A stretch of 64,000 nt of DNA from Parcubacteria bacterium C7867-007 (GTDB lineage: Bacteria; Patescibacteriota; Minisyncoccia; Phycocordibacterales; Phycocordibacteraceae): positions 7,059-71,058 of the forward strand of contig LFCQ01000003.1 of the NCBI GenBank assembly GCA_001189195.1. Reading direction: 5' to 3'. Below are positions 610 through 43,841 of the stretch, piece after piece. The notes beneath the pieces are model-generated. The model had not been told where the DNA came from and did no database searches. It saw only the letters and a list, made by a program, of their open reading frames with translations. The translations under genes were made by a program, and so were the position numbers. Numbering within the stretch: the stretch's first letter is position 1; every line of letters begins with the position of its first letter.

Positions 610-867
610 ATGCTTACGAACCCGCTTCAGTTTGACTCACTTCCAGAACTCCTCACTGGGGTATTAAGTGGACTGGTTGAAATTGGAGTGATTGTTCTCA
701 TCATCGCTTTTGTCTGGGTGGGTTTCTCATTTGTCCGTGCGCAGGGAAAGCCAGCCGAACTTGAGAAAGCAAAGGCAGCTTTTCTCTGGACGGTGATTGG
801 TGGCGCCATACTTCTTGGTGCACAGGGAATCGCAACGCTCGTTGAAGCTACGGTAACCGGCCTATGA
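610..867 (+). CDS. small 2-TM pilin-like protein, paralog 1 (TrbC/VirB2-like architecture; weakest member of the array)
   Basis: 85 aa with two hydrophobic helices separated by a short charged loop (AQGKPAELEKAK). It starts 9 bp after the upstream gene and overlaps the next gene by 4 bp (ATGA). Same architecture as the four downstream paralogs. Confidence 0.4.
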   Translation: MLTNPLQFDSLPELLTGVLSGLVEIGVIVLIIAFVWVGFSFVRAQGKPAELEKAKAAFLWTVIGGAILLGAQGIATLVEATVTGL

Positions 868-1334
868 CCTACACACGCAGCACAGGCATACTCCTAACCC
901 TTATAGCGGGCTTATTCCTCTTTGCTGCTACGACGACACAGGCGCAGACATGCACTCCGTCTTGTGGTACAGGAATGATCTGTGTGTATGAAGGATCTAA
1001 TGGATACACTGCAACATGTATAAAGGCTGCAGCTAGTGACGGTACGGTAGATGTGATTGAAGTGACCGCTACCGCAAAGTGTTCAGGAAAGTCTCTTTGT
1101 GCACTGGTGAACAACACTATTATTCCGATAGGTAACAGTATTGTTGGGTTGCTGTTTGCAGTGGCATTCCTCTTGTTTATCTATGGAATGTTTAAATACT
1201 TCTTCCTTAAGGGAGGAGATCCTAAAGCACGTTCAGAGGGCAGGATGTTCATGCTATGGAGTATTATTGCCTTTGCGGTGATGTTCTCCGTATGGGGACT
1301 AGTGAATCTCATCATTAATATAATTCCGACATAG
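864..1334 (+). CDS. secreted Cys-rich domain fused to a 2-TM pilin-like core (paralog 2)
   Basis: Signal peptide followed by a Cys-rich module (CTPSCGTGMICVYEG...CIKAA...CSGKSLC). Then helix 1, the loop GGDPKARSEGR, and helix 2 (SVWGLVNL). The motif is shared with ORFs at 1337, 1882 and 2300. Confidence 0.55.
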   Translation: MTYTRSTGILLTLIAGLFLFAATTTQAQTCTPSCGTGMICVYEGSNGYTATCIKAAASDGTVDVIEVTATAKCSGKSLCALVNNTIIPIGNSIVGLLFAVAFLLFIYGMFKYFFLKGGDPKARSEGRMFMLWSIIAFAVMFSVWGLVNLIINIIPT

Positions 1335-1336
1335 GT

Positions 1337-1783
1337 ATGGGTATACAGAACTTGATTGCGAGCAGTATTAACTTTATTAACAATGTGCTCGTGCCGTTCA
1401 TATTCGCTCTTGCCTTTGCATTCTTCTTGGTGCGGGTGTTCCAGTTCTTCTTTGTTAAAGGAACGGACCCAAAGGCACGGGTAGAGGGAAGGAACTTTAT
1501 TATTGGCTCCATCATTGCTCTCGCGGTAATGGTTTCTGTGTGGGGTCTCGTGAACCTTGTTGCCGGTACCTTCCGTCTAGATCGTAATCAGCCACGACTC
1601 CCAATATTCAATGCGGGAGGAGGTTCATCTGGTGGTTTCTTGGGTGGTTCAGGAAACGATGAAAGGATTCCTGCGGGCACATCAGATTCAGCAATTCCTG
1701 CAGGATCTGCACAAACAAGCCCATCTACTTCAGGTGGTGACAACTGTTTTATTAACAATGATGGTGAAAACATTTGTCTCTAG
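1337..1783 (+). CDS. 2-TM pilin-like protein with Gly/Ser-rich C-terminal tail (paralog 3)
   Basis: Helix 1, the loop KGTDPKARVEGR, and helix 2 (SVWGLVNL), followed by a low-complexity G/S tail ending in a Cys pair. It starts 3 bp after the upstream stop. Confidence 0.55.
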   Translation: MGIQNLIASSINFINNVLVPFIFALAFAFFLVRVFQFFFVKGTDPKARVEGRNFIIGSIIALAVMVSVWGLVNLVAGTFRLDRNQPRLPIFNAGGGSSGGFLGGSGNDERIPAGTSDSAIPAGSAQTSPSTSGGDNCFINNDGENICL

Positions 1784-1881
1784 CACAATAGCGTTGTCCC
1801 CACTCGCGCATTCTTCATATTGACGATGCGTTTGAGGGGTTTATCCTATACCTTGTACCTAATACCTATATTTGTATCTCT

Positions 1882-2235
1882 ATGAAAACACTTGCCTACA
1901 TAGGCGCAGCATCCGCTCTTCCGTTTATTGCGTTTGCGCAGAACGTAAACAGCGTTCAGGATCTCGCGTCGTTCATCATCAGCTTGATCAATAACGTAGC
2001 GGTACCGCTCGTATTTGCGCTCGCATTCATCGTATTTATCTGGGGCGTGTTCCGCTACTTCATTCTTGGTGGTAGCGATCCTAAGAAGCGCGATGAAGGT
2101 CGCCAGCTTATGATCTGGGGCATCGTTGGTTTCGCATTGATGGTTTCTGTGTGGGGTCTCGTACGTATCCTCACCGGTTCTGTGAACCTTAACAATGCAC
2201 CGCTTGAGGTACAGCCAGTTCGTCAGGTTCGTTAA
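1882..2235 (+). CDS. 2-TM pilin-like protein with signal peptide (paralog 4; closest to the TrbC/VirB2 / T4SS-pilin architecture)
   Basis: Signal peptide (…AFAQN), helix 1, the loop GGSDPKKRDEGRQ, and helix 2 (MVSVWGLVRIL). Followed by a rho-independent terminator. Confidence 0.6.
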   Translation: MKTLAYIGAASALPFIAFAQNVNSVQDLASFIISLINNVAVPLVFALAFIVFIWGVFRYFILGGSDPKKRDEGRQLMIWGIVGFALMVSVWGLVRILTGSVNLNNAPLEVQPVRQVR

Positions 2236-2258
2236 GCAAGGTTTCATTCTCCACTAAG

Positions 2259-2290
2259 AAAGCCGCTCCTTAGGAGCGGCTTTCTGCTAT
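2259..2290 (+). terminator. rho-independent terminator after pilin-like paralog 4
   Basis: Inverted repeat agccgctcc/ggagcggct with a 3-nt loop, followed by a T-rich tract. Confidence 0.6.
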
Positions 2291-2299
2291 CATAAACAC

Positions 2300-2551
2300 A
2301 TGGACGCATTTCATACTTTCCTGGACAATGTGCAGCGTGAGATCCTAACCCCTATTGTCGCGGTTATTGCACTCGCTGCTTTCATTCTCTTTATATACGG
2401 TATGGTGAAGTTTATATACAATGCTGGTGATGCAGCAAAACGAGCAGAGGGGCAGAAGCAGATGCTGTATGGAATCATCGGACTCGCTATTATGTTTGGT
2501 GCAAATGCACTTGTGAACCTTCTTCAAGGCACGGTATCGTCTCTATTCTAA
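2300..2551 (+). CDS. 2-TM pilin-like protein (paralog 5)
   Basis: 83 aa with helix 1, the loop NAGDAAKRAEGQKQ, and helix 2 (GANALVNLL). Same architecture as the neighbouring paralogs. Confidence 0.5.
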   Translation: MDAFHTFLDNVQREILTPIVAVIALAAFILFIYGMVKFIYNAGDAAKRAEGQKQMLYGIIGLAIMFGANALVNLLQGTVSSLF

Positions 2552-6348: not shown

Positions 6349-6554
6349 GATAGCACGCATGGTAGCATATATCTATGAAGTAGGGGATCTCAAGGTTGAG
6401 ATGGGAGAAGTTAAAGAACGACTAGGTTCGATAGAGGTTACGATCGACAGGATTGCTGGAGGTGTAGATACTCTTCTTCAAGAAAATGCAGCTGGAGGAG
6501 TGATCCTTAGTCGCCACAGTCGACAGATTAGCGCACTTGCACTGCACGCTGGTG

Positions 6555-6926
6555 CTACGCTTCCGGATTAGAATCCTCAGGCTCTTCTGCTTCAGGGATC
6601 ACTAGACCACGTGTAATCTCCTCTAGGTGCTGACGATTACGTTCACCGTAATCGAGCTCAAATGTTATATAGGGAAGCACTGCTAAACGTGTGGTGCCTT
6701 TCATTGAGTTACGGAAAAGATCCTTGTGGCGCTTGAGAAAGGCGAGCGCATGATCACTCTGGGCATCAGGGAACACACTTACATAAATAGTGGCATTCTT
6801 GCGGTCTGGAGAGATATCCGCACGCATAGGAGTGATGAGGGTGCTGCGTCCCGCTTCACGGGCGATGTACTTTGCAGCCAACTCAACGATGAGTGACTCT
6901 GCCTTATTTTCACGCATGCTTCCCAT
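6555..6926 (-). CDS. rbfA: ribosome-binding factor A
   Basis: Immediately downstream of infB on the same strand (the classical infB-rbfA order). RbfA-like core with an acidic C-terminal tail. The start is set to the ATG at 6926, which overlaps the infB stop. Confidence 0.65.
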   Translation of the reverse strand: MGSMRENKAESLIVELAAKYIAREAGRSTLITPMRADISPDRKNATIYVSVFPDAQSDHALAFLKRHKDLFRNSMKGTTRLAVLPYITFELDYGERNRQHLEEITRGLVIPEAEEPEDSNPEA

Positions 6927-6927
6927 A

Positions 6928-8409
6928 CTATGATTCAACAACGCGGAAGGTGATAAGGGTGTCGCCACCAGCGATGTCTACCTTGGTTTCAATTTGGAGG
7001 CCAAATTCACCCTCCACCTTAATTTCCTGCACATCCATGCGAGCAACCTGTAGGTTGGTGATACGACCCTGTCCAAGCGGAATACCACGACGCTCGATCT
7101 TAACCTGGCTCTTTGGAGTGAGAATACCTGACTCCCAGCGTGCACCAAGCACCACCTTTCCTGACGATGCATTAAATGTTTTAAGAACCTTTGCCTGACC
7201 AGTGAGTTCTTCTGTGGTGATGCGGGGTGCGTGCTCCTTCACAAGCTGCTCAATACGCTCCTTAAGCTCATAAATAATCTTGAAGGATTCAATGAGAATA
7301 GCTGCGCGTTCTGCGAGCTCACGCGCAGAGTTGTCTGTACCAACGGTAAAGCCGATAACAATAGCGCCACTTGCTTGTGCTTGCTTAACATCACCCTCGC
7401 TTACGGCACCTACACCTTCAACAATGACGCGTATTGCAACACGGTCATGCTGAATCTTGTTGAGCTCATGCTTAATTGCTTCAAGACTTCCAGTGACGTC
7501 TGCTTTAAGGATGATGGGTAGAACCCTTTTGCCGTCCTCTGTCTCAAGTGCCTTTGCAGGGATATTAGCAATGACCACCTTCTCCGTTGCAAGTTTCTCC
7601 GCATCCTTCTTAGAAGCTGCTGCAGCAAAAGGAGTACCAGCAGGAGGAAGGCTACTCCAACCTGCAATAAGTACGGGTTGTGAGGGAAGTGCAGTATCAA
7701 TGCGATCTCCTTTAAAGTCTTCGATGAAACGAACCGGTGCAATTGCACTTCCCGCCACCACAAATGAACCCGTACTAAGTGATCCGTCTTTGATAATGAG
7801 GGTAGCGGTCATTCCCTGACGAGGGTCTTGAGAAGATTCAAGAATAAAACCTTCTGCTGTTTTAGAAGAGTCTGCAGTTAGTTCCGCAAAATCAGCGGTT
7901 AGAAGAACGAGATCAAGAAGTTCAGGAACACCCTCACCTGTCTTAGAAGAAACACCCGTGTATGAAATAGAACCACCGAGACCTTCAAGATATATGCCGT
8001 GCTCTATGGTGCTCATCTTTGCACGCTCAATGTCTGCACTGTTCTTATCTATCTTGGTAAAGGCAACCACGAATGGTGTACCTGCTTCCATAATTGCTTC
8101 GTATGCTTCAAGCGTCTGTGGCTTCACTCCTTCCTCTGCTGCAATAACCAGGATTGCCACATCTGCTGCGGTTGCACCACGTGCGCGAAGTACGCGGAAT
8201 GCCTCGTGGCCCGGAGTGTCTAGGAATGTAATTGTGCGGGGGGCACCTTCGTGTTCGTGCACCACTTCATACGCAGATACGTGCTGTGTAATACCTCCTG
8301 CCTCACCTGCAGCAACATTAGACTTCCGGATGTAATCCAGAAGAGAAGATTTGCCGTGGTCGATGTGACCCATGACGGCCACTATTGGTGGACGGGGAGC
8401 AACAGCCAT
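6928..8409 (-). CDS. infB: translation initiation factor IF-2 (minimal form, G-domain near N-terminus)
   Basis: Contains GHIDHGKSSLLDYIR (G1) and DTPGHEAF (G3), plus C-terminal beta-barrel domains. The start is reassigned to the internal ATG (MAVAPRPP…), giving 494 aa. Confidence 0.85.
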   Translation of the reverse strand: MAVAPRPPIVAVMGHIDHGKSSLLDYIRKSNVAAGEAGGITQHVSAYEVVHEHEGAPRTITFLDTPGHEAFRVLRARGATAADVAILVIAAEEGVKPQTLEAYEAIMEAGTPFVVAFTKIDKNSADIERAKMSTIEHGIYLEGLGGSISYTGVSSKTGEGVPELLDLVLLTADFAELTADSSKTAEGFILESSQDPRQGMTATLIIKDGSLSTGSFVVAGSAIAPVRFIEDFKGDRIDTALPSQPVLIAGWSSLPPAGTPFAAAASKKDAEKLATEKVVIANIPAKALETEDGKRVLPIILKADVTGSLEAIKHELNKIQHDRVAIRVIVEGVGAVSEGDVKQAQASGAIVIGFTVGTDNSARELAERAAILIESFKIIYELKERIEQLVKEHAPRITTEELTGQAKVLKTFNASSGKVVLGARWESGILTPKSQVKIERRGIPLGQGRITNLQVARMDVQEIKVEGEFGLQIETKVDIAGGDTLITFRVVES

Positions 8410-10439: not shown

Positions 10440-13133
10440 ATGCCCCCTTTCAAGAACTTCACCACCAAGGCAAAAGAAGCTATAAAGCGAGCCCACGAGC
10501 TCGCTATTGAACGTGGTCAGAACCACGTAAGTCCGCTTCACCTCCTCACGGCCCTCATACACCAGGAGGAAAGTCTTGTATTTTCTGTACTTGATCGCAT
10601 GGACATCGATACCATGCTTCTCTCGGACACACTCCTTGAGTCACTTGAATCTCCGGACCCCACGTCGGTACTTTCTCCTTCCTATAACCTGTACCTCACT
10701 CCGGACCTTGCGGAGGCACTTGAGGCAGCAGGAAAGGTTGCTGCACGCATGAACGATTCCTTCATTGGAACAGAACATCTCTTTGTTGCGGTTATTGAAC
10801 ACCCTGGCCCTGCAGAAGAGATCCTTAGTCGATTCAAGATTGATGAGGAAACAGTCGAGCTTGTGCTCAAGGAACTTAAAACATCTAAGGATGGACAGAT
10901 TGCTGAACCAAAGCGCTTCCGTGCACTTTCTAAGTACACACGTAACCTAACGAAGCTTGCTCAGGACAATGCGCTTGATCCGGTCATTGGTCGTGACCAG
11001 GAAATCAATCGTGTGATTCAAATTCTGTCACGCCGTACCAAGAACAACCCTGTCCTTATCGGTGAAGCAGGTGTGGGGAAGACTGCTATCGCAGAGGGTC
11101 TCGCCCTACGCTTAGCAACCGGTGACGTTCCTGAGTCACTTAAGAATAAGGAACTCCTCTCCCTAGACCTTGGCATGATGATCGCGGGTACTAAGTACCG
11201 TGGTGAGTTTGAGGAGCGCATGAAGGCAGTGATGAAGGAGGTGGAGAAGTCCGAAGGGAAGGTGATTGTATTTGTGGATGAGCTCCATACATTGGTGGGT
11301 GCGGGTGCTGCAGAGGGATCACTAGACGCAACCAACATGTTGAAGCCTGCACTGGCACGCGGTGAGATACGTATGATTGGTGCCACCACCCTTAAGGAGT
11401 ATCAACAGCATATTGAAAAGGATGCTGCCCTCACACGCCGCTTCCAGCCTGTGTATGTGAACGAACCAAACACTGAAGATGCCATTGCCATCCTTCGTGG
11501 TCTACGTGATAAGTACGAACTCTTCCATGGTGTTCGTATCACTGATGGGGCCATTGTGTCTGCGGTAGAACTATCTAGTCGCTATATCACCGACCGATTC
11601 CTTCCCGATAAGGCTATAGATCTTGTGGATGAAGCAGCCTCTGGTCTGCGTATTGCTCTTGAAAACAAACCACCACTCCTTGAAGATACGGATCGCAAGA
11701 TACGACGTCTGGAAATTGAACACGCAGCCCTTAAGAAGGATGATGCAACGCTTTCAGAGCAAGGTCGTGAGAACAGCAAGGATATTCGTGAGCGCGTAAA
11801 GGCAATTGATACAGAGATAGCTGATCTTCGTGAAAAAACTGCAGAGCTTGAACTGAAGTGGAAGAATGAGAAGGAAGTACTGCAAGATATTCGTTCACTC
11901 AAGGGTGAGCTTGATCGCCTTCGTGTTGCCGCAGACAATGCAGAAGCAACCGCAGACCTTGGTACAGCAGCAGAGATTCGGTATGGACGGATCCCACACC
12001 TTCAGAAGGAGCTGGAGGCGAAGACCAAACGTCTTAAGACACTTCAGAAGTCTCGCCGTATCTTGCACGAAGAGGTAACAGAGCATGAGATTGCTGGAGT
12101 GGTCTCACGATGGACGGGAGTACCCGTAGCTAAGATGATTGAAGAAGAAGCAGCAAAGCTTGCTCGCATGGAGGAAGCGCTTCAAGGTGCCGTCATCGGA
12201 CAGAGCCAAGCTATCAGAATTGTTACCGATGCCGTAAAGCGATCACGGGTGGGTATCGCAGATCCTAACCGTCCGATTGGTTCATTCATCTTTCTTGGAC
12301 CAACAGGAGTGGGAAAGACAGAACTATCAAAGCGTCTTGCAGAATTCATGTTCAATGATCGTGATGCACTCGTTCGTGTAGATATGTCTGAGTTTATGGA
12401 GAAGCACTCAATTGCAAAACTCATTGGTGCTCCTCCAGGCTATGTTGGCTACGATGAGGCAGGTTCACTCACTGAACGTATTCGACACCGTCCGTATGCC
12501 GTTGTTCTCTTCGATGAAATTGAGAAGGCACACCCTGAAGTATTTAACATTCTCTTGCAGGTACTTGATTCAGGACATCTCACCGACAGCAAGGGGCGCA
12601 AAGTGAACTTCAAGAACACCATCATCATCCTCACCTCAAACATTGGTGCAGAGTATATGGACCGTATGGCTAACATCGGATTCGGTGCTGCTGAACAGGT
12701 TGAATCTGCACAATACGAACAGATGAAAGAGAAGGTTCTTGGTTCTCTCAAGGAGCAATTCCGTCCCGAGTTCCTCAATCGCCTGGATGACATAATTATC
12801 TTCGATCCTCTTTCAAAGGAAGCGCTTGTAGATATTGTTGAGAATCAAGTGGCCGAAGTGGTGGAGCGTCTAAGTGGCAAGCGTATCACTCTCGCTATCA
12901 TGCCTGAAGTACGTGCATGGCTTGCCGAGAAGGGATATAACCCTCAGTACGGAGCACGTCCTCTAAAACGTACTATTCAGGATAAGATCCTCACCCCTAT
13001 CGCTTCACTTATGGTTGGACAGGGAATTATGGATGGAGGAACCGTTACGATCTCTCTTAAGAACGGGGAACCCCACTTTGAGGTGAAGAAGGCCGCAACC
13101 CGAACCCGTCGCAACGCGGCCGTACCTGCCTAG
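10440..13133 (+). CDS. clpB: ATP-dependent chaperone ClpB
   Basis: 897 aa with a Clp N-domain, two AAA+ modules ([10 protein letters not shown] and [10 protein letters not shown] Walker A motifs), a middle coiled-coil, and a C-terminal D2-small domain. Confidence 0.95.
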
Positions 13134-13169
13134 TTGCCGGTATACCGCCACTCTGGTACAGTATTCCCA

Positions 13170-13322
13170 ATGTCACAGGTAAACCTCATAAAGGTGAAGA
13201 GCGCCTCAGGCCTCGTACTATTCACCCGCAAGAATAAGAAAAAGGTGGATCGTAAGCTTGAACTTAAGAAGTTCGACAAGAACACCCGCAAGCGTGAAAT
13301 CTTCAAGGAAGTAAAGAAGTAA
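13170..13322 (+). CDS. rpmG: 50S ribosomal protein bL33
   Basis: 51 aa with …KLELKKFDKNTRKREIFKEVKK matching the bL33 signature. The start is reassigned from the TTG at 13134 to the ATG at 13170. Confidence 0.75.
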   Translation: MSQVNLIKVKSASGLVLFTRKNKKKVDRKLELKKFDKNTRKREIFKEVKK

Positions 13323-13326
13323 AAGA

Positions 13327-13352
13327 AACCGCCCGAAAGGGCGGTCTTCTTT
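13327..13352 (+). terminator. rho-independent terminator after rpmG
   Basis: accgccc-gaaa-gggcggt hairpin followed by cttcttttgtc. Confidence 0.65.
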
Positions 13353-13442
13353 TGTCTTGATTGAGAATACAATCCTTACGTGCAAGTTGACATATGTAGC
13401 ATAAGAATGCATTATATGATCTGGACAACAAAGGAGAAGTAG

Positions 13443-13616
13443 ATGTCCGAAGACTTGGAACCACTGCCATCCTCAGAGGAAATGATCGAACGGATTTGTG
13501 AGAAACTGTACGGTCCGATCGTAGACCTCGAGTTCCACAGGGCAGTGAGAAAAATTGAAGGTGTATCTATTGATTCCGAACATGCTGAATGGGTACTTTC
13601 GTTGTTCGGTGTCTAA
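13443..13616 (+). CDS. 57-aa small acidic protein with near-perfect Shine-Dalgarno (below the ORF-track size cutoff)
   Basis: AAGGAG lies 6 nt upstream of the ATG at 13443. The ORF is MSEDLEPLPSSEEMIERICEKLYGPIVDLEFHRAVRKIEGVSIDSEHAEWVLSLFGV. A hairpin plus T-run at 13686-13716 could terminate it. Confidence 0.3.
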   Translation: MSEDLEPLPSSEEMIERICEKLYGPIVDLEFHRAVRKIEGVSIDSEHAEWVLSLFGV

Positions 13617-13685
13617 GTGAAGTAAGAATAGTTGTGTGTAAAGAAACATCTTAGAAAATACCAAGGGTTCTAAAGGAACCAAACC

Positions 13686-13716
13686 GCACCTGTCCTAGAC
13701 GGGTGCATTTTATTTC
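13686..13716 (+). terminator. putative terminator hairpin
   Basis: gcacc-N11-ggtgc followed by attttatttc. Confidence 0.35.
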
Positions 13717-13813
13717 TATTAGGAAGTGTGCGGGTCCTGTGGGACGATATTCGACTCAATATATAAAAGAAATACCCCAGGCAGAGGAGTCGGACCTCGG
13801 CCTGGGGCAACTG

Positions 13814-14146
13814 TTAGAACCAGTCGTACTTTGGATCATCCATACGGACGAGCCGGATGGACCTTTCGTACCTGACCCAGAACTTTCCCGGCTTGTACAT
13901 AGGAAGCCGAGGGATAGATTCCAATCGCGGTTGCTCGATCTTGCCTGCAGCAATGAATTCACGGCAGAGAGCCTCAGCCTGTTCGGGGAATTCGTGCCAC
14001 GGCCACCCCTTGTATTGTTGGATGACCTTGTCCCAATCCTCAGGGATTCGGCAGGCAGTTCGGCTCACGATTTTCACAACGATGGCGGGATTCTTTTTCC
14101 CCTCCACCATATCAGCGATGCAGTTTGAAACACTAAGTCCGATCAT
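13814..14146 (-). CDS. hypothetical 110-aa protein
   Basis: The start is chosen at the internal ATG (14146) because AAGGAG lies 7 nt upstream. The alternative overlapping plus-strand ORF 13703-14128 lacks an RBS. Confidence 0.35.
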   Translation of the reverse strand: MIGLSVSNCIADMVEGKKNPAIVVKIVSRTACRIPEDWDKVIQQYKGWPWHEFPEQAEALCREFIAAGKIEQPRLESIPRLPMYKPGKFWVRYERSIRLVRMDDPKYDWF

Positions 14147-14327
14147 GGTCAGTCTCCTTGAATGGTTGGTACGCGTGAGCGCACCTTCCATAGAAGAAGA
14201 AAGAGTAATCGGAGGTGCGCGGTGATAGCCTGCAATCAGCCTTTATCTTCGATGACGCATTATGTCCTCCGTACGTTAATGTGCAGTACAGAAAGCATAA
14301 AAACACGTATAATATGAAAAGTCAATG

Positions 14328-14398
14328 CGGGCCCACGAGGAATCGAACCTCGGCCGACGGTTTTGGAGACCGACGTTCTACCATTAAACTATAGGCCC
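14328..14398 (-). tRNA. tRNA-Trp (anticodon CCA)
   Basis: Cloverleaf GGGCCTATAGTTTAATGGTAGAAC…, anticodon loop CTCCAAA, T-arm CGAGGTTCGATTCCTCG, discriminator G. Confidence 0.85.
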
Positions 14399-14473
14399 TG
14401 TATAGGAACGATAGCAGAACCGTGCGCTACGGGCAAAGCTGCTTATTTGAGGTGGTACGATACAAGTAACAAT

Positions 14474-15430
14474 ATGGTGGCTAAACGCGCGCTTTTAAGT
14501 TTTGTTCTCTTTACTCTTGTTTCAGTGCCGCTTTCTGTGTTTGCTGCGGAGACAAGCTTCTTTGGTCCGATCATTCCTCAAGAAGGAGATAAGTGTTATT
14601 GCCCTGGTAAGGCAATGGACTGGGGGTGTGCACTCGAAGTGTTTCAGAATGTGTTGAACGCCCTAATTTCACTTGGAGTAGTAGCGGTGGTGTTTTTCAT
14701 CGGATGGGCAGGGTTCCTGCTTATGACGGGTGGATCAAATCCAGCAACACGCACGAAAGCAAAGAATCGTATGCTCAGTGGGGTGGTTGGCCTCGCAGTT
14801 ATTCTCGGCGCCTTCCTTATCGTTGATACGGTAATGAAGATCCTCTATAACCCAGATACTGCTCTTGAAAAAGGTACCTTCGGTCCTTGGAATGAGATTC
14901 TCTCTGGTGCAGAAGATAACTATTGCGTGGTTGTGAACGAGACTCCCGGTGTGCTGAATAATGGAAGTGTGATGGATATCATAAGCAACGCACTTAATCT
15001 TGGCACCACTAATTCATCAACCAAAGGTGCTGCCACCACTCCCGGTGGAACAATATCTGGAGGATATACCTATGATCCTGGTATTAAAGCCCAGACTGTT
15101 CATGCATCAGGTGAGCTCACCGCCCTGCTAAGTTGTATGAGACCAAAACTTCCCGCAGGTGTTGGTCGTATATCTTCGATCTCAGATAGTGCCATTGTGA
15201 ACGGAAGCAAAACCTTTAATAAGTGTGCAGCGTCAGGCTGTGCACACACCATTAATTCATGTCACTACGGAGGCAAAGCATGTGTGGGGCGCTCACTTGC
15301 TGTTGATTTTGGTGATGAAGACAATGCAAGCGTGCTTAAGGCAGCTGCTATTTCGTGTGGAGCAAACACAGCAGTGAATGAAGGCGATCACCTTCATGTG
15401 AGTGTGGGGAAGTCGTGTGGTTGTAACTGA
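14474..15430 (+). CDS. secreted pilin-like 2-TM module fused to a LAS-type (M15/M23-like) zinc peptidase-like domain; putative peptidoglycan peptidase
   Basis: Signal peptide with mature N-terminus AETSFFGPIIPQ…C.C. Then helix 1, the loop GGSNPATRTKAKNRM, helix 2, a Thr/Gly linker, and a C-terminal …SCHYGGKACVGRSLAVDFGDED…GDHLHVSVG (an H…D plus HxH zinc-ligand pattern). The start is moved to 14474 to avoid overlap with tRNA-Trp. Confidence 0.55.
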   Translation: MVAKRALLSFVLFTLVSVPLSVFAAETSFFGPIIPQEGDKCYCPGKAMDWGCALEVFQNVLNALISLGVVAVVFFIGWAGFLLMTGGSNPATRTKAKNRMLSGVVGLAVILGAFLIVDTVMKILYNPDTALEKGTFGPWNEILSGAEDNYCVVVNETPGVLNNGSVMDIISNALNLGTTNSSTKGAATTPGGTISGGYTYDPGIKAQTVHASGELTALLSCMRPKLPAGVGRISSISDSAIVNGSKTFNKCAASGCAHTINSCHYGGKACVGRSLAVDFGDEDNASVLKAAAISCGANTAVNEGDHLHVSVGKSCGCN

Positions 15431-16455
15431 TGTCGTACAATAGAAATACTTATATGGGAATGCGCGCTTTTCTTTTCTCTTCCAGTGCTGCAGCACTGGC
15501 ATCTGTGCCCTTTGCAGTCTTTGCGGCAGAGACAAGCTTCTTTGGTCCTATCATTCCACAGATTGGTGAGTGTGTATGCGAAGGAAGTGCAATGGATTGG
15601 GGATGTGTACTGGTTGTTGCGCAAGGATTTCTAGGAGCACTCGTTTCCTTTGGTGTTCTGGCAGTGGTCTTCTACATTGGCTATGCAGGCTTCACTCTTA
15701 TAACGAGTGGTGGTAACCCGGCAACCCGTACGAAAGCAAAGAATCGTATGCTCAGTGCCGTAGTTGGTCTCGCGGTTATTCTCGGGGCATTCCTTATCGT
15801 TGATACGGTAATGAAGATTCTCTATAACCCAGATACTGCTCTTGAAAGCGGCACCTTTGGTCCTTGGAATGAAATCTTTGTAGGAGGAGAAGAAAACTAT
15901 TGTGTTGCAGTGAATATGAATCCAGGTGTGCTGAATGATGGAAGTGTGGCAGACATTATAAGCAACGCACTTAATCCAGGCACCACTACCTCATCGACAA
16001 TGGGTGGAGGGACTGCTCCGTCAGGTTCAGGTGCTCCTAGCTCAGCGGGAGGAAGGTGTCAGGTTAAAACCAGTGGACCATGCGCAACCTCAAACTTCAC
16101 GGCAGCATTTGGTGCAGCGGCAGGTCAAGCCTCGCAAATCTGTTCTGCAGAAAGTGGTAACGGAACTCTTCTTGAAGGAGATAGAACCACTTCAGGCAAG
16201 CCGGTGTCGTTCGGACTCTTTCAGATTAATATAACGGCGCATCCTGTTGCTGGACTGCAGTGTCCAAAAGCATTTGATCGCTTGTTCACGGGGTCAAACA
16301 AGAACGTTAAAATACTAGATGCGGATCTCTATCAAAAGTGTAGAACGGCTGCTCTTAATAGTTCTAATAATGCAGCGGTTGCCGCTAAAATATTCAAGGG
16401 CGATAAAAATAGCTGGAGGCAGTGGAGTACCCGTAGAACGTGTGGATTACCCTAA
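15430..16455 (+). CDS. secreted pilin-like 2-TM module fused to a lytic transglycosylase (SLT/VirB1-like) domain
   Basis: TGATG overlap with the upstream gene. The mature N-terminus is identical to that gene (AETSFFGPIIPQ…) and it has the same GGNPATRTKAKNRM loop. C-terminal …CSAESGNG…SGKPVSFGLFQINIT… resembles the family-1 lytic transglycosylase catalytic motif (ES…GLMQ). Confidence 0.55.
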   Translation: MSYNRNTYMGMRAFLFSSSAAALASVPFAVFAAETSFFGPIIPQIGECVCEGSAMDWGCVLVVAQGFLGALVSFGVLAVVFYIGYAGFTLITSGGNPATRTKAKNRMLSAVVGLAVILGAFLIVDTVMKILYNPDTALESGTFGPWNEIFVGGEENYCVAVNMNPGVLNDGSVADIISNALNPGTTTSSTMGGGTAPSGSGAPSSAGGRCQVKTSGPCATSNFTAAFGAAAGQASQICSAESGNGTLLEGDRTTSGKPVSFGLFQINITAHPVAGLQCPKAFDRLFTGSNKNVKILDADLYQKCRTAALNSSNNAAVAAKIFKGDKNSWRQWSTRRTCGLP

Positions 16456-16458
16456 TAT

Positions 16459-17004
16459 ATGCCTATGAAAAAAACTCTTGTAATTAGTAGTGTGGTCGTA
16501 GTTGTTGCTCTTGTTGCGATGGGAGTATTTTTGGTCATGACTAATTCTAGTAACCCATCAGGTATTGCTACATCCACCAACCCGTTCGGGAATCCTGGAT
16601 TAGGTGGTGGTCAAGGTACCACTACAATGAGTGAAATCATTTCGATTAAGAATCGTGATGGAGAGATACGAACCGTTCCTGATTTTACAAAAGACCACCC
16701 AAGCATTGAGCAGACAAGTGGAACGTACTATTACGTTACCCAAAACGAGCAGAACGAAGAAATGTATCCGGACTTCTCGATTGTCTACGGTTCAGACTCG
16801 TCACTGTCTATCGGTATCTTCGCTGAACCACTCGGTGCATCTCGCCTCCACGCAGAGCAAGTACTTAAGAAACTTCTTGGACTTTCAAATAGTGAACTTT
16901 GTAAGCTGGATGTAGCGGTCATGGTCCCTGTTGATGTGAGCGAGACCTATGCAGCTAGAGATCTAGGACTTAGCTTTTGTCCGGGAGCGGTGAAGCTTCC
17001 GTAA
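16459..17004 (+). CDS. membrane-anchored secreted protein, same operon as the two hydrolase fusions
   Basis: Starts 4 bp after the upstream stop. N-terminal TM/signal anchor, a Gly-rich segment, and a C-terminal Cys pair. Confidence 0.45.
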   Translation: MPMKKTLVISSVVVVVALVAMGVFLVMTNSSNPSGIATSTNPFGNPGLGGGQGTTTMSEIISIKNRDGEIRTVPDFTKDHPSIEQTSGTYYYVTQNEQNEEMYPDFSIVYGSDSSLSIGIFAEPLGASRLHAEQVLKKLLGLSNSELCKLDVAVMVPVDVSETYAARDLGLSFCPGAVKLP

Positions 17005-17842
17005 GCTTCCTGAGCCACTTCTTTTGTTCTCGGGCATAATGCCACAGCTTCACTGAAAGAGCGCCTAAGAGGGAATCTTCACTACGTTCACCGCGCAGGT
17101 ATTCACCAACCACGCGATACTCAAGGCCTAATTCAGTAAGCCTTGTGTCTCCCACACGATCACGGGTACGGCGTACTTCGTCTATTAGACCCCGATCTAG
17201 TGCCTGCTGTAGTCGAGCTTCAATACGTGGACGGAGCTCTTCTTTAGGAGGGTCAATAACAACCCACTCTACATCGTATGCAGCATTGGTCCGTTGCCTT
17301 TCTGGTACGGAACCGTGGAGTGCAATCATTTCTGCTGCCCGCACTAACCGGCGACGGTTATGAGGATCAAGCATTTGTGCACGACGAGGATCCTTGGCGC
17401 TTATGCGTGCAAAGAGTTCAGCAGTCGGAAGTGTCTCTAACTCTGCACGAATGATCGGGTCACTTTGAATCTCAGGAAGTCCATACAAAAGAGCATCAAA
17501 ATAGAAGTGGGTACCTCCTGCAAGTACTGCTTTCTTTCCCTGTCTATGCAGATCTGCAATGATCGTTCGTGCATCTGATACAAAGTCTCCGGCACTGTAC
17601 ACCTCTTCAGGTTCACGAACATCTATTAAGTGATGTACCACACCCTGCATTTCCTCTGTAGTGAGTTTCTCAGTACCTATATCAAGAGTTCGATACACCT
17701 GACGTGAATCAACAGATATAACCTCACTCCCCAGCTCCTTTGCAAGAGAAATGGCACGCGCTGACTTACCACTTGCAGTGGGTCCAATGACGGCAATTAT
17801 AGGAATTCGCTGCTCTGTCATGTATGCTCGCGATCCTACCAC
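16970..17842 (-). CDS. miaA: tRNA dimethylallyltransferase
   Basis: P-loop IAVIGPTASGKSARAI, SVDSRQVYRTLDIGT, and the overall MiaA length (290 aa). Confidence 0.85.
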   Translation of the reverse strand: MVGSRAYMTEQRIPIIAVIGPTASGKSARAISLAKELGSEVISVDSRQVYRTLDIGTEKLTTEEMQGVVHHLIDVREPEEVYSAGDFVSDARTIIADLHRQGKKAVLAGGTHFYFDALLYGLPEIQSDPIIRAELETLPTAELFARISAKDPRRAQMLDPHNRRRLVRAAEMIALHGSVPERQRTNAAYDVEWVVIDPPKEELRPRIEARLQQALDRGLIDEVRRTRDRVGDTRLTELGLEYRVVGEYLRGERSEDSLLGALSVKLWHYAREQKKWLRKLTEASPLPDKS

Positions 17843-17855
17843 ATAAAACCATTAG

Positions 17856-17937
17856 TGCCGGGGGAGGGAGTCGAACCCTCATGCCTTGCGGCAGTGGGTT
17901 TTGAATCCACCGCGTATAACCATTCCGCCACCCCGGC
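17856..17937 (-). tRNA. tRNA-Leu (anticodon CAA)
   Basis: GCCGGGGTGGCGGAATGGT…, anticodon loop TTCAAAA, a long variable arm, and T-arm GAGGGTTCGACTCCCTC. Confidence 0.85.
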
Positions 17938-35765: not shown

Positions 35766-35790
35766 GGAACGGCGTAAGTTGCGCCGTTCC
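35766..35790 (+). promoter_or_regulatory. perfect 9-bp stem-loop in the leader of the ECF sigma gene, 15 nt upstream of its ATG
   Basis: ggaacggcg-taagttg-cgccgttcc. No T-run follows, so it is not a terminator. Confidence 0.35.
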
Positions 35791-35805
35791 TGCACGTCAT
35801 ATCCT

Positions 35806-36315
35806 ATGGACCAGGACCAAGCAAAGGCATATTTCCTTGATATTCATGAGAAGCATGCGGATGAGATATTCCGATTCTGCCTCATGAAGGTCTCAAATAA
35901 GGAAAAGGCGGAGGATTTGACCCAAGAAGCATTTATGCGGTTTTGGCAGTCCGTTCGCACTGGAGAGACGATCCGTCAGGAGCGTGCCTTCCTCTATACA
36001 CTTGCTCGCAACCTGGTTATAGACTGGTACCGTAAGAAGAAGGAAAGCTCCCTCGACGCTATTCAGGAGGAGGGAATGGACTTTGCTGGAGAAGGGAAAG
36101 CAGATGTTGAGCAGCTTGCGCAGATGAACGAAGCCCTTGCGGTTATCGATACTCTTGATGCTTCATCTCGTGAAGCAGTGCTCCTCCGCTACGTGGAAGG
36201 GTGGTCTCCGCAAGAGATTGCCGCCCTCACCGGAGAAACAGCAAATGCCGTGTCTGTGCGTCTCAACCGTGCTATCAAGAAGGTGCAAGAACGAATACAT
36301 GCGACCAACCCGTAA
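35806..36315 (+). CDS. ECF-type RNA polymerase sigma-70 factor
   Basis: Region 2 (…LTQEAFMRFW…LYTLARNLVIDWYR…) and region 4 (…EIAALTGETANAVSVRLNRAIKKV…). Confidence 0.8.
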   Translation: MDQDQAKAYFLDIHEKHADEIFRFCLMKVSNKEKAEDLTQEAFMRFWQSVRTGETIRQERAFLYTLARNLVIDWYRKKKESSLDAIQEEGMDFAGEGKADVEQLAQMNEALAVIDTLDASSREAVLLRYVEGWSPQEIAALTGETANAVSVRLNRAIKKVQERIHATNP

Positions 36316-37363
36316 AACAACTGAATATCTAAAATCACTCCAGACTCTCAAGCTCGATGAGAGTGTTAAAGCACGTATGCGTGATGGACTTGATGCATAC
36401 GCTGATCTACACACTCTCAAGACTCCCATTTCAATACCTGTGCGCTCACCATTCTTTGCATACTCATTCATGCGCACAAGCTACGGAGTCTTTGCTGTTG
36501 CCCTCATGCTGCTCGTTTCCGGTACGGGTGCTGCCTACGCTTCCGAAGCAAGTGTGCCAGGAAGTCCTCTGTATAGGGTTAAGGTCTCTGTTATTGAGCC
36601 TGTACGTGGTGCTCTTATAACCAGTGCACAGGGTCAAGCGGAGTGGCATGCGAATCTTGCTGCACGTCGTCTTGAAGAAGCAACGAAGCTTGCGGTGGCC
36701 AATAAGCTTGATGCAGAATCTAGTGCATACCTCCAGGATCGATTTGAATCTGAAGTACGCATTTCAAGTCAGGCAGCGGATGCACTAACCGTAACAGGTA
36801 ACACAGAAGCAGCACTAGATGTGCGCTCCGATCTTGAAGCACGCATTACAGCTCACGCACAGATCCTTGGTCTCGTATCTGAACACCTTAAAGCAACGGT
36901 GGGTGAAGATGCTTCAGGTTTTCTTGATACCCGAGCATTTCTTGCGGTGATCAACGAACATCGTGAGGAGGTGGTACAAGCACGTCTGGCACTTGAAGAC
37001 TCTGCAAGTGACACCGATCCGGTGGTTACCCTTGCGCGTGCAGATGTAACGGCAAAGACCGTGGTCTCTCTTGCTCGTGCCAATCCAGCCGGTACTGTTG
37101 AAGATATTTCTGAACCTCATCTTGATACTGCTCGTGCTGCACTTATGCAGGCACAGGGAGCGTCAAGTGAAATAGAGGCTTCAAACAAGGCCCATGAGGC
37201 AGAGCGTGCTTCTGATGTAGCAACTATCCTTTTGCAGCACGCAAAACTGATTAGTACCCTCACTATTGCAACAAGCACAGCAACCACCACCCCTGTGGAA
37301 ATCCCAACAGAAACACCTGATGATACTGAGAAATCTGTTCAGAAGGACCCTATATCTCGATAA
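36299..37363 (+). CDS. putative anti-sigma factor / DUF5667-like membrane protein (overlaps the sigma stop)
   Basis: The start is reassigned to the ATG at 36299, which overlaps the sigma gene by 17 nt. Short cytoplasmic N-terminus, one TM helix, and a long Ala-rich helical extracytoplasmic domain. Confidence 0.45.
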   Translation: MRPTRKTTEYLKSLQTLKLDESVKARMRDGLDAYADLHTLKTPISIPVRSPFFAYSFMRTSYGVFAVALMLLVSGTGAAYASEASVPGSPLYRVKVSVIEPVRGALITSAQGQAEWHANLAARRLEEATKLAVANKLDAESSAYLQDRFESEVRISSQAADALTVTGNTEAALDVRSDLEARITAHAQILGLVSEHLKATVGEDASGFLDTRAFLAVINEHREEVVQARLALEDSASDTDPVVTLARADVTAKTVVSLARANPAGTVEDISEPHLDTARAALMQAQGASSEIEASNKAHEAERASDVATILLQHAKLISTLTIATSTATTTPVEIPTETPDDTEKSVQKDPISR

Positions 37364-41080: not shown

Positions 41081-43831
41081 ATGGCACTGGAAGGACCAGC
41101 GCGACCAATACGGTCGCCAGAAGAAGAACTTGCATACCTGCGTGCAGAAGTGCTCGCAAAGGAACAAGAACTTGCTTCACTGCGCGTGGATAAACCACGT
41201 GAGACTGTCATACATGAACGCATTCTGCACCATGCAGAACAGCCGGGACACCAGGTACTTGATTCGAAGTACCAGATGAAGCAGGAGGAGAAGCACGAGC
41301 TTGCACTTAACCTTGAGCCTCGGGCTGATGATGAGACCATGGAGGAACTCCGAAAGATTATCGAGACAAAAGGCATTCATAATGCGTTCGGTGTACTTGA
41401 GAAGCTTAAAAACCCGCACCTAGAAGATGATTTCCATCGGTTCCTTGTGCAGTATCTTCTTGCAGGTATGCCACTTGGCATGAATGAGAAGCAGCCAGAG
41501 TGGAAAGGTCTCCATATGACGCTGTATGAAGTCTCCTTGCCTGAGGCAAACGCTGATGATGAATCACGGAGGAAATCTCTTAAGGAATTGATATCTGCTA
41601 TGGAGCAGTTCTATTCCGGTATGCTTGCAACAGAGCATGCGGTTGCAGGAGAGCCTGCACACTTCACGCTTGAACTAGCTGTACCGGTAAACAAAGCTCA
41701 TTTGATGTTTTATGCCGCTGTTCCAAACACCAAGCGTGATTTGTTTGAGAAACAACTGCTCGCCATCTTCCCAAGTGCACACATCGCTCCACAACCAAAC
41801 GACTACAACATCTTCACGAATGGTGGTGCATCATTTGGTTCGGTAGCGGCACTAGGAAGGCCGGGTATGCTTCCTTTAAAGGATTACGGAGACTTTGATT
41901 ATGATCCAATCAATTCGATCCTAAACGCCTTTGCAAAGATTGCCCCTGAAGGTGAGGGTGCATCACTGCAAATCGTTATTGCGCCACAAGGAGATAGATT
42001 CATAAAACACTACAGGAAGGTATTGAGTGCACTTCGTAGCGGAGAGACGAGTCATACCGCCTTTCATCTTCCCGAGTCTTTCTTGGGAGAAGCAGCACGC
42101 GATATCACTAAGACTTTTTTCAGCAAACAGAAGACAGAGGATGACTCTCAAGAGAAGGCACGACAAATTGAATCTAATAAAGGAGAAATTGAGCATGTTG
42201 AGCGAAAGCTAGCGGCACAAATAGTCGCTACCAATATGAGATTGGTAGTTTCCTCAATGGATGGAAATAGAGCTGAACAGATATTGGGTGAGCTCGAGTC
42301 TGCGTTCCATCAGTTTGAGAACCCAACGAGTAACCGGATTGAATGGAAACGAGTGTCGCGTAACACCCAGCGTACCCTCTTTCATGACTTCACCTTTCGC
42401 ACCTTTGAAAAGGGCAGTGAAGTACCTCTTTCAATTAAGGAGCTCACCACCATCTTCCATTTCCCTCCTTCAGGTATTGCATCATCTCCGCATCTAAAGC
42501 AATCTCGCTTCACCGCAGCAGCTGCTCCACTAGAACTTCCTCATGAAGGTATTCAACTTGGTACTAATACGTATCGTGGGCAAGACACGGATGTGTTGCT
42601 GGCACCCGAAGATCGTCTCCGTCATTTGTATGTGATCGGACAAACTGGTACCGGTAAGACATCATTTATGAAAACGCTCATTGAGCAGGACATAAAAGCG
42701 GGGAATGGTGTTTGTTTCATTGATCCCCATGGCAATGACATTCTTGATGTGCTGGCATGCGTGCCTCCTGAGCGATATGAGGATGTTATATACTTTGACC
42801 CCGCATATCTTGATCGCCCTTTTGGTCTCAATCTCCTGGAATACGATCCTGCATTCCCTGAACAGAAGACATTCATAGTTAACGAGCTCCTTGCAATCTT
42901 CCGTCGTTTGTATGGAGATGTACCTGAATCCATGGGCCCTGCCTTTGAACAGTATTTCCGCAACGCAACATTGCTCGTGATGGAAGACCCTGCTTCAGGT
43001 TCAACTCTCATGGATATTGGTCGGGTGCTTTCAAATAAAGACTTTAGAGATCTAAAACTATCTCGGAGCATGAATCCGGTAGTGAATCAGTTCTGGAATG
43101 AAATAGCCTCACAGGCTGAAGGTGAGGCATCACTTGCAAACATTGTGCCGTACATCACAAACAAGTTTGATGACTTCACCGCGAATGATTTCATGCGTCC
43201 TATCATTGGCCAACAAGAATCATCCTTCAACTTCCGGGACATCATGGACAAGAGAAAGATTCTTCTGGTGAATCTTTCTAAGGGTCGTTTGGGTGAACGG
43301 AATGCAAACCTCATTGGTTTGATCATGGTGGGCAAACTCTTTATGGCGGCACTTTCTCGTGCAGATGATCCACGGGCAGTGTTCCCTCCGTTCTATGTGT
43401 ATATAGATGAATTCCAAAACATAACCACAGACTCAATTCCCGCTATCCTCTCTGAAGCACGCAAATACAAGCTTTCCATGACCATGGCACACCAGTTCTT
43501 GGCACAGGTTGATGAAAAGACTCGTGATGCAGTATTCGGGAACGTGGGATCCATGGCTGTGTTCCGAGTTGGCCAGGAGGATGGAGAATTCTTTGCAAAA
43601 CAATTTGCACCCACGTTCTCTGCGCCAGACTTCATTAACATTGAAAACTACAACGCATACGTGCGTATGCTTGCAAATGGTGTTCCTCAAAAGCCATTCA
43701 ACATCCACTCACTAAAGCCCGTTGAAGGAAATCAAAATCAGATTGATGACTTACGAGAACTTTCATACCTCACGTATGGACGTGATCGTGCTACTGTTGA
43801 GGGAGCAATTAGAGCAAAATATCTTTCGTAA
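41081..43831 (+). CDS. FtsK/HerA-superfamily ATPase of type-IV-secretion type (VirB4/TraC/TrbE-like or VirD4/TraD-like); no N-terminal TM helices
   Basis: 916 aa with a mid-protein Walker A (LYVIGQTGTGKTSFMKTL) followed by CFIDPHGNDIL. Walker B/C-terminal block YVYIDEFQNITT…EARKYKLSMTMAHQFLAQV…AVFGNVGSMAVFRVG, as in T4SS ATPases. Confidence 0.6.
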   Translation: MALEGPARPIRSPEEELAYLRAEVLAKEQELASLRVDKPRETVIHERILHHAEQPGHQVLDSKYQMKQEEKHELALNLEPRADDETMEELRKIIETKGIHNAFGVLEKLKNPHLEDDFHRFLVQYLLAGMPLGMNEKQPEWKGLHMTLYEVSLPEANADDESRRKSLKELISAMEQFYSGMLATEHAVAGEPAHFTLELAVPVNKAHLMFYAAVPNTKRDLFEKQLLAIFPSAHIAPQPNDYNIFTNGGASFGSVAALGRPGMLPLKDYGDFDYDPINSILNAFAKIAPEGEGASLQIVIAPQGDRFIKHYRKVLSALRSGETSHTAFHLPESFLGEAARDITKTFFSKQKTEDDSQEKARQIESNKGEIEHVERKLAAQIVATNMRLVVSSMDGNRAEQILGELESAFHQFENPTSNRIEWKRVSRNTQRTLFHDFTFRTFEKGSEVPLSIKELTTIFHFPPSGIASSPHLKQSRFTAAAAPLELPHEGIQLGTNTYRGQDTDVLLAPEDRLRHLYVIGQTGTGKTSFMKTLIEQDIKAGNGVCFIDPHGNDILDVLACVPPERYEDVIYFDPAYLDRPFGLNLLEYDPAFPEQKTFIVNELLAIFRRLYGDVPESMGPAFEQYFRNATLLVMEDPASGSTLMDIGRVLSNKDFRDLKLSRSMNPVVNQFWNEIASQAEGEASLANIVPYITNKFDDFTANDFMRPIIGQQESSFNFRDIMDKRKILLVNLSKGRLGERNANLIGLIMVGKLFMAALSRADDPRAVFPPFYVYIDEFQNITTDSIPAILSEARKYKLSMTMAHQFLAQVDEKTRDAVFGNVGSMAVFRVGQEDGEFFAKQFAPTFSAPDFINIENYNAYVRMLANGVPQKPFNIHSLKPVEGNQNQIDDLRELSYLTYGRDRATVEGAIRAKYLS

Positions 43832-43841
43832 CAATTGATGT

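Follow-up and report, generated by a model that had tools for sequence, protein, structure and literature searches.

Predicted glycan- and peptide-cleaving peptidoglycan enzymes carried on VirB2-like pilin hairpins in Parcubacteria bacterium C7867-007

Analysis of 64,000 nucleotides from the genome of Parcubacteria bacterium C7867-007 (contig LFCQ01000003.1, positions 7,059 to 71,058; this whole stretch is called the window) revealed two adjacent genes whose products, P1 and P2, each combine a VirB2-like pilin hairpin with a different predicted wall-cleaving domain. Comparison with homologous sequences gives good support for P1 and P2 as extracytoplasmic, membrane-tethered peptidoglycan enzymes, P1 of the peptide-cleaving and P2 of the glycan-cleaving kind. 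It is also fairly likely that they serve a Patescibacterial VirB2-like pilus or type IV secretion system (T4SS) as an analogue of VirB1 or PrgK. P1 is 100% identical to AB202_00150 of C7867-007, a member of Parcubacteria (Paceibacteria) from groundwater with a genome of ~0.7 Mb (PMC4508563). The two genes are followed by a third, and all three open reading frames lie where an initial annotation had placed them; the features of the locus are as follows (coordinates of the window).

14474..15430, + strand: gene 1 (P1), 318 amino acids (aa); signal peptide, VirB2-like hairpin, linker and LAS (Hedgehog/DD-peptidase-like) domain
15430..16455, + strand: gene 2 (P2), 341 aa with the ATG at 15430 or 333 aa with the ATG at 15454; signal peptide, VirB2-like hairpin, linker and lysozyme-like/SLT_3 domain
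16459..17004, + strand: gene 3 (ORF3), 181 aa; N-terminal membrane anchor, Gly-rich linker and extracytoplasmic domain of ~110 aa

The N-terminal parts of P1 and P2 are 76% identical over ~176-190 residues and contain the following elements.

14474..14545, + strand: predicted Sec signal peptide of P1, residues 1-24, cleaved between VFA and AE; P19 and A24 are nearly invariant
14639..14830, + strand: T4SS_pilin (PF18895) match of P1, residues 56-119; two transmembrane (TM) helices and the positively charged loop NPATRTKAKNR
14849..15058, + strand: conserved segment after TM2 of P1 (FGPWN...C151) and low-complexity Gly/Thr/Ser linker, residues 126-195, with low AlphaFold confidence (pLDDT)
15652..15807, + strand: T4SS_pilin match of P2, residues 75-126

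Both proteins read VFA followed, across the cleavage site, by AETSFFGPIIPQ ... CxC ... AMDWGC. The initial annotation of this DNA had described near-identical signal peptides and an identical mature N-terminus; the cleavage context and the mature N-terminus are identical, but in their hydrophobic cores the two signal peptides show only similarity (the cleavage site of P1 was inferred from an A-x-A-type motif, and the hydrophobic segment from hydropathy). The pilin-like module with two TM helices that had also been noticed corresponds to Pfam T4SS_pilin, which scored 37.6 bits in P1 and 28.2 bits in P2 (cut-off 26.6) and matched 52 of 53 P1 homologues. The matches of the TrbC and VirB2 Pfam models were weaker, with TrbC below its cut-off, and the sole NCBIfam match in P1 and P2 was a sub-threshold one to a pilin model of integrative and conjugative elements (ICE). 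A core common to P1, P2 and the small proteins encoded at 610-2551, as suggested before, was recovered as well, since all five of the latter match PF18895, four of them above the cut-off. By hydropathy, the hydrophobic segments are residues 4-30, 52-88 and 98-127 in P1 and 13-38, 54-94 and 104-134 in P2, and AlphaFold predicts two helices of ~36 residues with a 4-residue turn between them (50-85 and 90-125 in P1, 57-92 and 97-132 in P2). A VirB2 pilin is expected to be a small protein made up of little more than the hairpin; P1 and P2 differ from this in their lengths of 318 and 341 aa and in the predicted catalytic domains of ~125-130 residues after the hairpin.

Because the hairpin loop is basic, the positive-inside rule places both mature termini and the C-terminal domains outside the membrane. 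The cysteines (12 in P1 and 10 in P2, both even numbers) are all located in segments predicted to lie outside, as would suit extracytoplasmic domains stabilised by disulfides. The observed features are not due to chance, P1 having more than 200 full-length homologues. In seven genomes, the N-terminal modules of P1- and P2-type paralogues (14474-15050 and 15430-16040 in the window) are 60-76% identical within a genome, and modules of the same type are 49-64% identical between genomes. Long runs of identical codons occur in the TM2 and post-TM2 region of the paralogues (72.8% nucleotide identity, with the same codon used for 59% of identical residues). The likeness within genomes points to gene conversion or to co-adaptation of the two anchors as possible causes.

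The C-terminal domain of P1 contains a predicted zinc site.

15059..15427, + strand: C-terminal LAS-type zinc-peptidase-like domain of P1, residues 196-318, 8 Cys; outside all Pfam families
15263..15397, + strand: predicted zinc site of P1, formed by H264 (15263-15265), D278 (15305-15307) and H308 (15395-15397)

An H...D plus HxH pattern had been pointed out in this domain, and it is present as SCHYGG...AVDFGD...GDHLHVSVG with key residues that are invariant across homologues. H264, D278 and H308 were found in all 150 cluster representatives, and the presumed catalytic helpers H258, H306 and E303 in 148, 148 and 124 of the 150, respectively, with Asn at the position of E303 in 16. When P1 was aligned with the human Sonic hedgehog N-domain (ShhN, reference sequence identical to PDB 6e1h_C) by hhalign, H258, H264, D278, E303, H306 and H308 fell on H134, H140, D147, E176, H180 and H182, E303 reaching E176 through a one-residue gap (E-value 4e-4; score 29.1 compared with 11.9 ± 2.3 and a maximum of 20.3 for 150 shuffles). 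In Shh, H140, D147 and H182 (mouse H141, D148 and H183) form the zinc triad, and E176/177 is the LAS general base (PMC6027127). The domain has the Hedgehog/DD-peptidase fold, with structural match figures of 9.3 for the Sonic hedgehog N-domain (103 residues, 2.5 Å), 9.1 for Drosophila Hedgehog, 8.8 for Shh, 7.7 for the Streptomyces albus Zn D-Ala-D-Ala carboxypeptidase, 7.4 for VanX and 6.8 for the L-Ala-D-Glu endolysin LysB4. A profile of the C-terminal domain alone retrieved from PDB only Hedgehog proteins, including Desert hedgehog (E ~0.5). Searches of PDB chains with the P1 and P2 sequences gave insignificant matches or none, and the profile of the full-length P1 family gave nothing.

An exhaustive profile search found the LAS domain in 607 clusters (50% identity) at E <= 1e-3 and in 368 at E <= 1e-10. 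It is always C-terminal, and at least two hydrophobic segments were present in 135 of 150 representatives of the family; at the loci whose matches were printed, hidden Markov model (HMM) searches placed the pilin module on all LAS-bearing open reading frames (ORFs) but two. The initial annotation had left the choice between M15 and M23. The M15-like part of this proposal stands, and the M23/lysostaphin part (M23 beta-sheet fold, HxxxD ... HxH) was rejected, with no support from structure or HMM searches. From the alignments and the predicted fold we conclude that the C-terminal domain of P1 probably represents a branch of zinc peptidases of the Hedgehog/DD-peptidase (M15-like) type that has not been described before.

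The Hedgehog likeness also allows the domain to be read as a non-catalytic zinc- or ligand-binding module, for example in wall binding or signalling, rather than as a peptidase. Hedgehog N-domains are its closest matches in both structure and sequence, and the term 'pseudo-active site' has been applied to the zinc site of these (PMC6027127); the M15 models of Pfam give no match, and the ligand spacing is unusual. Nevertheless, conservation covers the whole presumed catalytic constellation beyond the metal ligands (H258 and H306 in 148 of 150, E303 in 124 of 150), and the domain is repeatedly found next to a peptidoglycan glycosidase (SLT, glucosaminidase) or in one chain with it, which is the classic architecture of bifunctional murein hydrolases. 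A non-catalytic role is therefore extremely improbable.

In P2, the hairpin and linker are followed by a different domain.

16057..16452, + strand: C-terminal lysozyme-like (SLT_3) domain of P2, residues 210-341, pLDDT > 90
16150-16155, + strand: E241-S242 of P2, predicted to be catalytic
16207-16209, + strand: S260 of P2
16213-16224, + strand: GLFQ motif of P2

The motif resembling that of lytic transglycosylases, which had been proposed for P2, was verified: ES...SFGLFQIN is present and its key residues are invariant across homologues. Among 29 sequences, E241, G262 and Q265 never vary, and S242 is conserved in at least 90%. The domain has a lysozyme-like fold, and alignment with hen lysozyme by hhalign placed E241 on E35 and S260 on D52 (score 28.4, compared with 11.1 ± 2.2 for shuffles); the column of hen lysozyme D52 is mostly Ser in P2 homologues. 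A single catalytic Glu with no second carboxylate is the pattern of lytic transglycosylases (or goose-type lysozymes). P2 is thus most likely, judging from these residues, a single-glutamate lysozyme-like enzyme of the lytic transglycosylase type. Orthologues of P2 (47-54% identity) are annotated with PF18895 and PF18896, and two with PF18895 and PF01464.

ORF3 bears a single N-terminal hydrophobic anchor, so that its earlier description as a membrane-anchored protein holds. R129, E133, C148 and C174 of its domain are invariant, and the gene is a conserved partner in the locus. Searches with ORF3 gave no Pfam, NCBIfam or significant PDB match, and no relatives were detectable outside the group.

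The two catalytic activities are brought together repeatedly among relatives. T4SS_pilin, SLT (PF01464, 54 and 68 bits) and LAS are found on a single chain in two proteins (P0155 and P0273), and a glucosaminidase is joined to LAS in another (P0279). A 456-aa protein (locus L015, 5005-6375) has SLT-like and LAS domains in a single chain with one N-terminal hydrophobic segment and no pilin hairpin, and an ORF3 homologue follows directly (6401-7063). In locus L032, a pilin-LAS gene is followed by a pilin-SLT gene. Two relatives, a pilin-SLT-like protein (P0137) and a pilin-X-LAS protein (P0250), are encoded directly after PrgI/TraC-like/VirB4 genes, within T4SS clusters that lie next to rnpA-yidC-dnaA-dnaN (the virB4-associated relatives are those of loci L036 and L039), and P0250 is flanked by two further large pilin fusions. 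The link to a pilus or secretion apparatus that had been suggested for P1 and P2 thus gained support from relatives located inside T4SS clusters. According to a recent survey, most VirB2-bearing Patescibacteria have no recognisable VirB1, and S. epibionticum is reported to depend on peptidase and lysozyme homologues encoded downstream of virB4, which are essential there (PMC12102498).

These patterns are consistent with the following mechanism. P1 and P2 would be exported by Sec and cleaved by signal peptidase, after which the VirB2/TrbC-type hairpin would hold each of them in the cytoplasmic membrane with the short Arg/Lys loop towards the cytoplasm and both termini directed outward. The flexible linker of ~70 residues could then bring the disulfide-rich catalytic domain into the wall, where the zinc peptidase of P1 (LAS/Hedgehog-DD-peptidase type) would cut stem peptides or cross-links of peptidoglycan and P2 would cut glycan strands. 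Together, and probably with the anchored partner ORF3, they would open peptidoglycan locally. The pilin-type anchor may target P1 and P2 to the machinery handling VirB2-like pilins in Patescibacteria, which would make them the wall-opening (VirB1/PrgK-like) component of a VirB2-like pilus or T4SS. The domain identities, the topology argument, the conservation of catalytic residues and the patterns of fusion and neighbourhood are shown by the sequences, and we infer the enzymatic activity, the bond cleaved and, for the C7867-007 genome, the link to pilus/T4SS assembly.

Several observations weigh against this reading. Pfam models of M15, VanY and HH_signal match none of the 53 members of the P1 family, and no C-terminal Pfam match was obtained at E <= 1. 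The Foldseek search of P1 against PDB gave no significant match and did not recover the LAS fold. The spacing between His and Asp is 12-21 residues, mostly 13 (H-x13-D), compared with the canonical 3-6 (H-x3-6-D), which is due to a Cys-containing insert. The SLT_3 match of P2 (25.0 bits, E 2.6e-5) is just under the gathering threshold of 27. The locus lies in a housekeeping synteny conserved in ~20 related genomes, clpB-(rpmG)-[pilin-X]-[ORF3]-[pilin-LAS]-miaA(convergent)-parB-relA-topA, and many genomes retain pilin-LAS with no pilin-SLT or ORF3 nearby. VirB4, VirB6 and PrgI were not found in the window, and the locus is outside any T4SS cluster. Two other kinds of T4SS-type genes were found in the window.

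610..2551, + strand: array of five small VirB2-like pilin genes, 12 kb upstream of the locus
41081..43831, + strand: T4SS coupling-protein-like ATPase with DUF87 and TraG-D_C; its TraD/VirD4-like NCBIfam matches are below cut-off

The ATPase is 24 kb from the locus and is the sole T4SS-type gene found in the window besides the small-pilin array. It is 916 aa long, has no N-terminal membrane anchor apparent by eye and is next to no other T4SS genes; the gene that follows it encodes an acidic protein of 664 aa, for which no family matched (41081-45836 for both). The five tandem small pilins (83-156 aa) are highly divergent from one another, and some have Cys-rich or Gly-rich extensions. Pilin arrays of this kind are known from Patescibacteria (PMC12102498).

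The locus is vertically conserved in its place between clpB/rpmG and miaA-parB-relA-topA and has neither mobile-element nor T4SS genes beside it. This would suit housekeeping autolysins that remodel the cell's own wall for growth or division, the VirB2-like hairpin being a mere anchor unrelated to any pilus or T4SS. The retention of pilin-LAS where the SLT partner is absent fits this explanation, as does the fact that the organism makes peptidoglycan: Ddl is encoded in the window, and peptidoglycan biosynthesis is a core function of Parcubacteria (PMC4508563). However, the LAS domain sits almost exclusively on the pilin hairpin and not on ordinary single-pass anchors, relatives are found directly after virB4 within T4SS clusters, and arrays of several genes for large pilin fusions (L033 and L039) look apparatus-linked. 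On this evidence we consider the autolysin explanation unlikely.

VirB2-type pilins have both termini on the outside of the filament, and for this reason C-terminal cargo on a pilus is sterically conceivable. The pilin modules of P1 and P2 might then co-polymerise with the small pilins, and the displayed hydrolases might digest the wall of a host or partner cell, which would help the bacterium to attach, to penetrate or to scavenge muropeptides. Such a host-directed weapon or feeding device would agree with the hairpin being a genuine VirB2-family module with five small pilins encoded nearby, and with the co-evolution of the N-terminal modules within genomes (60-76% within as against 49-64% between). 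Furthermore, Patescibacteria live as episymbionts and cannot grow on their hosts without their pilin arrays and T4SS (PMC10633639; PMC12857230). On the other hand, no Patescibacterial VirB2-like protein has evidence of pilus formation, a cargo of ~200 residues per subunit has no precedent, the long identical-codon runs indicate that the similarity within genomes comes at least partly from gene conversion, and C7867-007 has been described as putatively free-living in groundwater (PMC4508563). This use of the two proteins therefore appears decidedly improbable.

Large pilin fusions are not restricted to LAS- and SLT-bearing proteins. Arrays of 3-4 consecutive large (300-700 aa) proteins with the T4SS_pilin hairpin were observed in L033 (62-5573), L039 (8102-13089), L025 (5452-8521) and L022 (3875-7240), and their C-terminal domains, except in the members bearing LAS or SLT, have no Pfam match. 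From these sequences, it seems that the pilin hairpin generally serves to carry extracellular 'cargo' domains of diverse kinds. A more far-reaching version is that the hairpin is a general scaffold for cargo-carrying pilins, in which P1 and P2 join the small pilins in building a T4SS pilus that displays peptidoglycan-degrading enzymes, and other paralogues display further domains, to breach or harvest the host wall. We regard it as distinctly unlikely; if true, it would be an enzymatically armed conjugative-type pilus, which is without precedent.

The locus is bounded by the following genes.

14327..14398, - strand: tRNA-Trp, bounding the locus upstream
16970..17842, - strand: miaA (IPPT), convergent, with a 35-nt overlap with the 3' end of ORF3; downstream boundary, conserved in ~20 related loci

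Because the flanks are conserved housekeeping genes in ~20 genomes, a mobile-element or ICE origin of the locus was ruled out. The usual gene order in relatives is pilin-SLT, ORF3, pilin-LAS, and in the window it is LAS, SLT, ORF3. As with ORF3 here (16970-17004), the final gene of the locus in relatives either abuts miaA or overlaps it, and no terminator-like site was found between ORF3 and miaA in this 3' overlap. A promoter and terminator scan of 13100-17900 was uninformative, with promoter-like sites rarer than in shuffles. A longer TTG-initiated ORF (14363-15430) was rejected as gene 1, because it overlaps tRNA-Trp and the homologues start at the ATG at 14474.

Genes 1 and 2 were reported to overlap as TGATG, and they do: the junction reads ...AAC TGA TG TCG..., in which the TGA of gene 1 (15428-15430) and the ATG at 15430 have one base in common. 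The translational coupling deduced from this overlap is plausible but not established, because the start of gene 2 is uncertain: it could just as well be the in-frame ATG at 15454 or the one at 15460. Many homologues of gene 2 start with 'MGxR...', and one database copy of 333 aa fits the start at 15454. Upstream of the alternative start (15430-15460), SYNRNTY resembles the 'PYNGGI/PYNKEN' of some homologues; the conserved 'YN' is encoded by TACAAT, which could be a -10-like element and not coding. The distance from the TAA of gene 2 to the start of ORF3 is 3 nt, and not 4 bp as first given, and the NCBI copy of ORF3 begins two codons further downstream.

Some observations concern other genes. 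In locus L038, a reverse transcriptase gene (RVT_1) lies beside a bAvd-like gene (14824-16203), ~3 kb downstream of the gene for P0273 with pilin, SLT and LAS; this pair is the signature of a diversity-generating retroelement. Nine contigs with a locus of the Paceibacteria type, mostly with the clpB/miaA/parB synteny (L005, L006, L009, L010, L014, L019, L022, L025 and L029), are labelled Saccharibacteria, Bacillota, Patiriisocius, Pacearchaeota or Thermoplasmatales, and are probably mis-binned or mislabelled contigs of metagenome-assembled genomes. In the window, a gene for a sigma factor of the ECF type overlaps the start of a gene for a DUF5667 protein (35779-37363), and the two are probably a sigma/anti-sigma pair.

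A description of pilin-hydrolase fusions was not found in the literature. The initial annotation could not assign the architecture to a described family. The LAS fusion is undescribed, but the combination of T4SS_pilin and SLT_3 can already be seen in precomputed annotation by Pfam, and such proteins carry the name 'pilin' at NCBI. What is undescribed is solely the LAS domain and the biological meaning of the fusions; the combination of pilin anchor and hydrolase is common in the phylum and barely described. A large part of bacterial diversity belongs to the Patescibacteria, and in the single system examined so far their episymbiotic growth required both the T4SS and the VirB2-like pilin arrays. 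The present analysis predicts wall-cleaving domains on a large family of pilin-hairpin proteins, of which the LAS type by itself makes up at least 607 clusters at 50% identity, and it defines a predicted Hedgehog-like zinc-peptidase domain family that was previously unannotated. The fusions, some of which lie directly after virB4, provide a concrete candidate for the missing wall-opening function of the VirB1 kind, and the annotation 'pilin' may conceal a modular family of anchored extracellular enzymes.

Among known systems, the reference set for the P1 peptidase is the LAS/M15 type, comprising the Streptomyces albus DD-carboxypeptidase, VanX, phage L-Ala-D-Glu endolysins (LysB4) and bacterial Hedgehog-like proteins; unlike these, the P1 domain has no sequence-level membership in Pfam or PDB families, bears a Cys-containing insert and eight cysteines, and is almost always found on a pilin hairpin. 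The P2 domain resembles SLT (PF01464), SLT_3 (PF18896) and C-type lysozyme in its lysozyme-like fold and its E-S and G-L-F-Q-I-N motifs. It is like a lytic transglycosylase in having Ser at the position of hen lysozyme D52, and cysteine-rich like C-type lysozyme; its pilin-hairpin tether and sub-threshold SLT_3 score set it apart from the SLT and lysozyme families. With VirB2/TrbC pilins (PF04956, PF18895) and the Patescibacterial arrays, P1 and P2 share a signal peptide, two hydrophobic helices and a short basic loop, and, as in those arrays, small paralogues are arrayed in the same window. However, they are 3-4 times longer than classical pilins, which have no enzymatic cargo, owing to the linker of ~70 residues and the C-terminal catalytic domain. 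The VirB1-class hydrolases of Gram-positive T4SSs are PrgK of pCF10, TraG of pIP501, TcpG and CD419. These have a single TM helix, whereas the anchor of P1 and P2 is a signal peptide with a VirB2-type two-helix hairpin; their peptidase is of the CHAP/NlpC-P60 or LytM type, whereas that of P1 is zinc LAS/Hedgehog-like; and in P1 and P2 the activities are divided over two paralogous genes with no T4SS cluster around them in the window. As in the VirB1 class (PMC12102498), P1 and P2 would be membrane-anchored and extracytoplasmic and would combine a glycosidase of the lytic-transglycosylase/lysozyme-like type with a peptidoglycan peptidase, and relatives of both are encoded directly after virB4.

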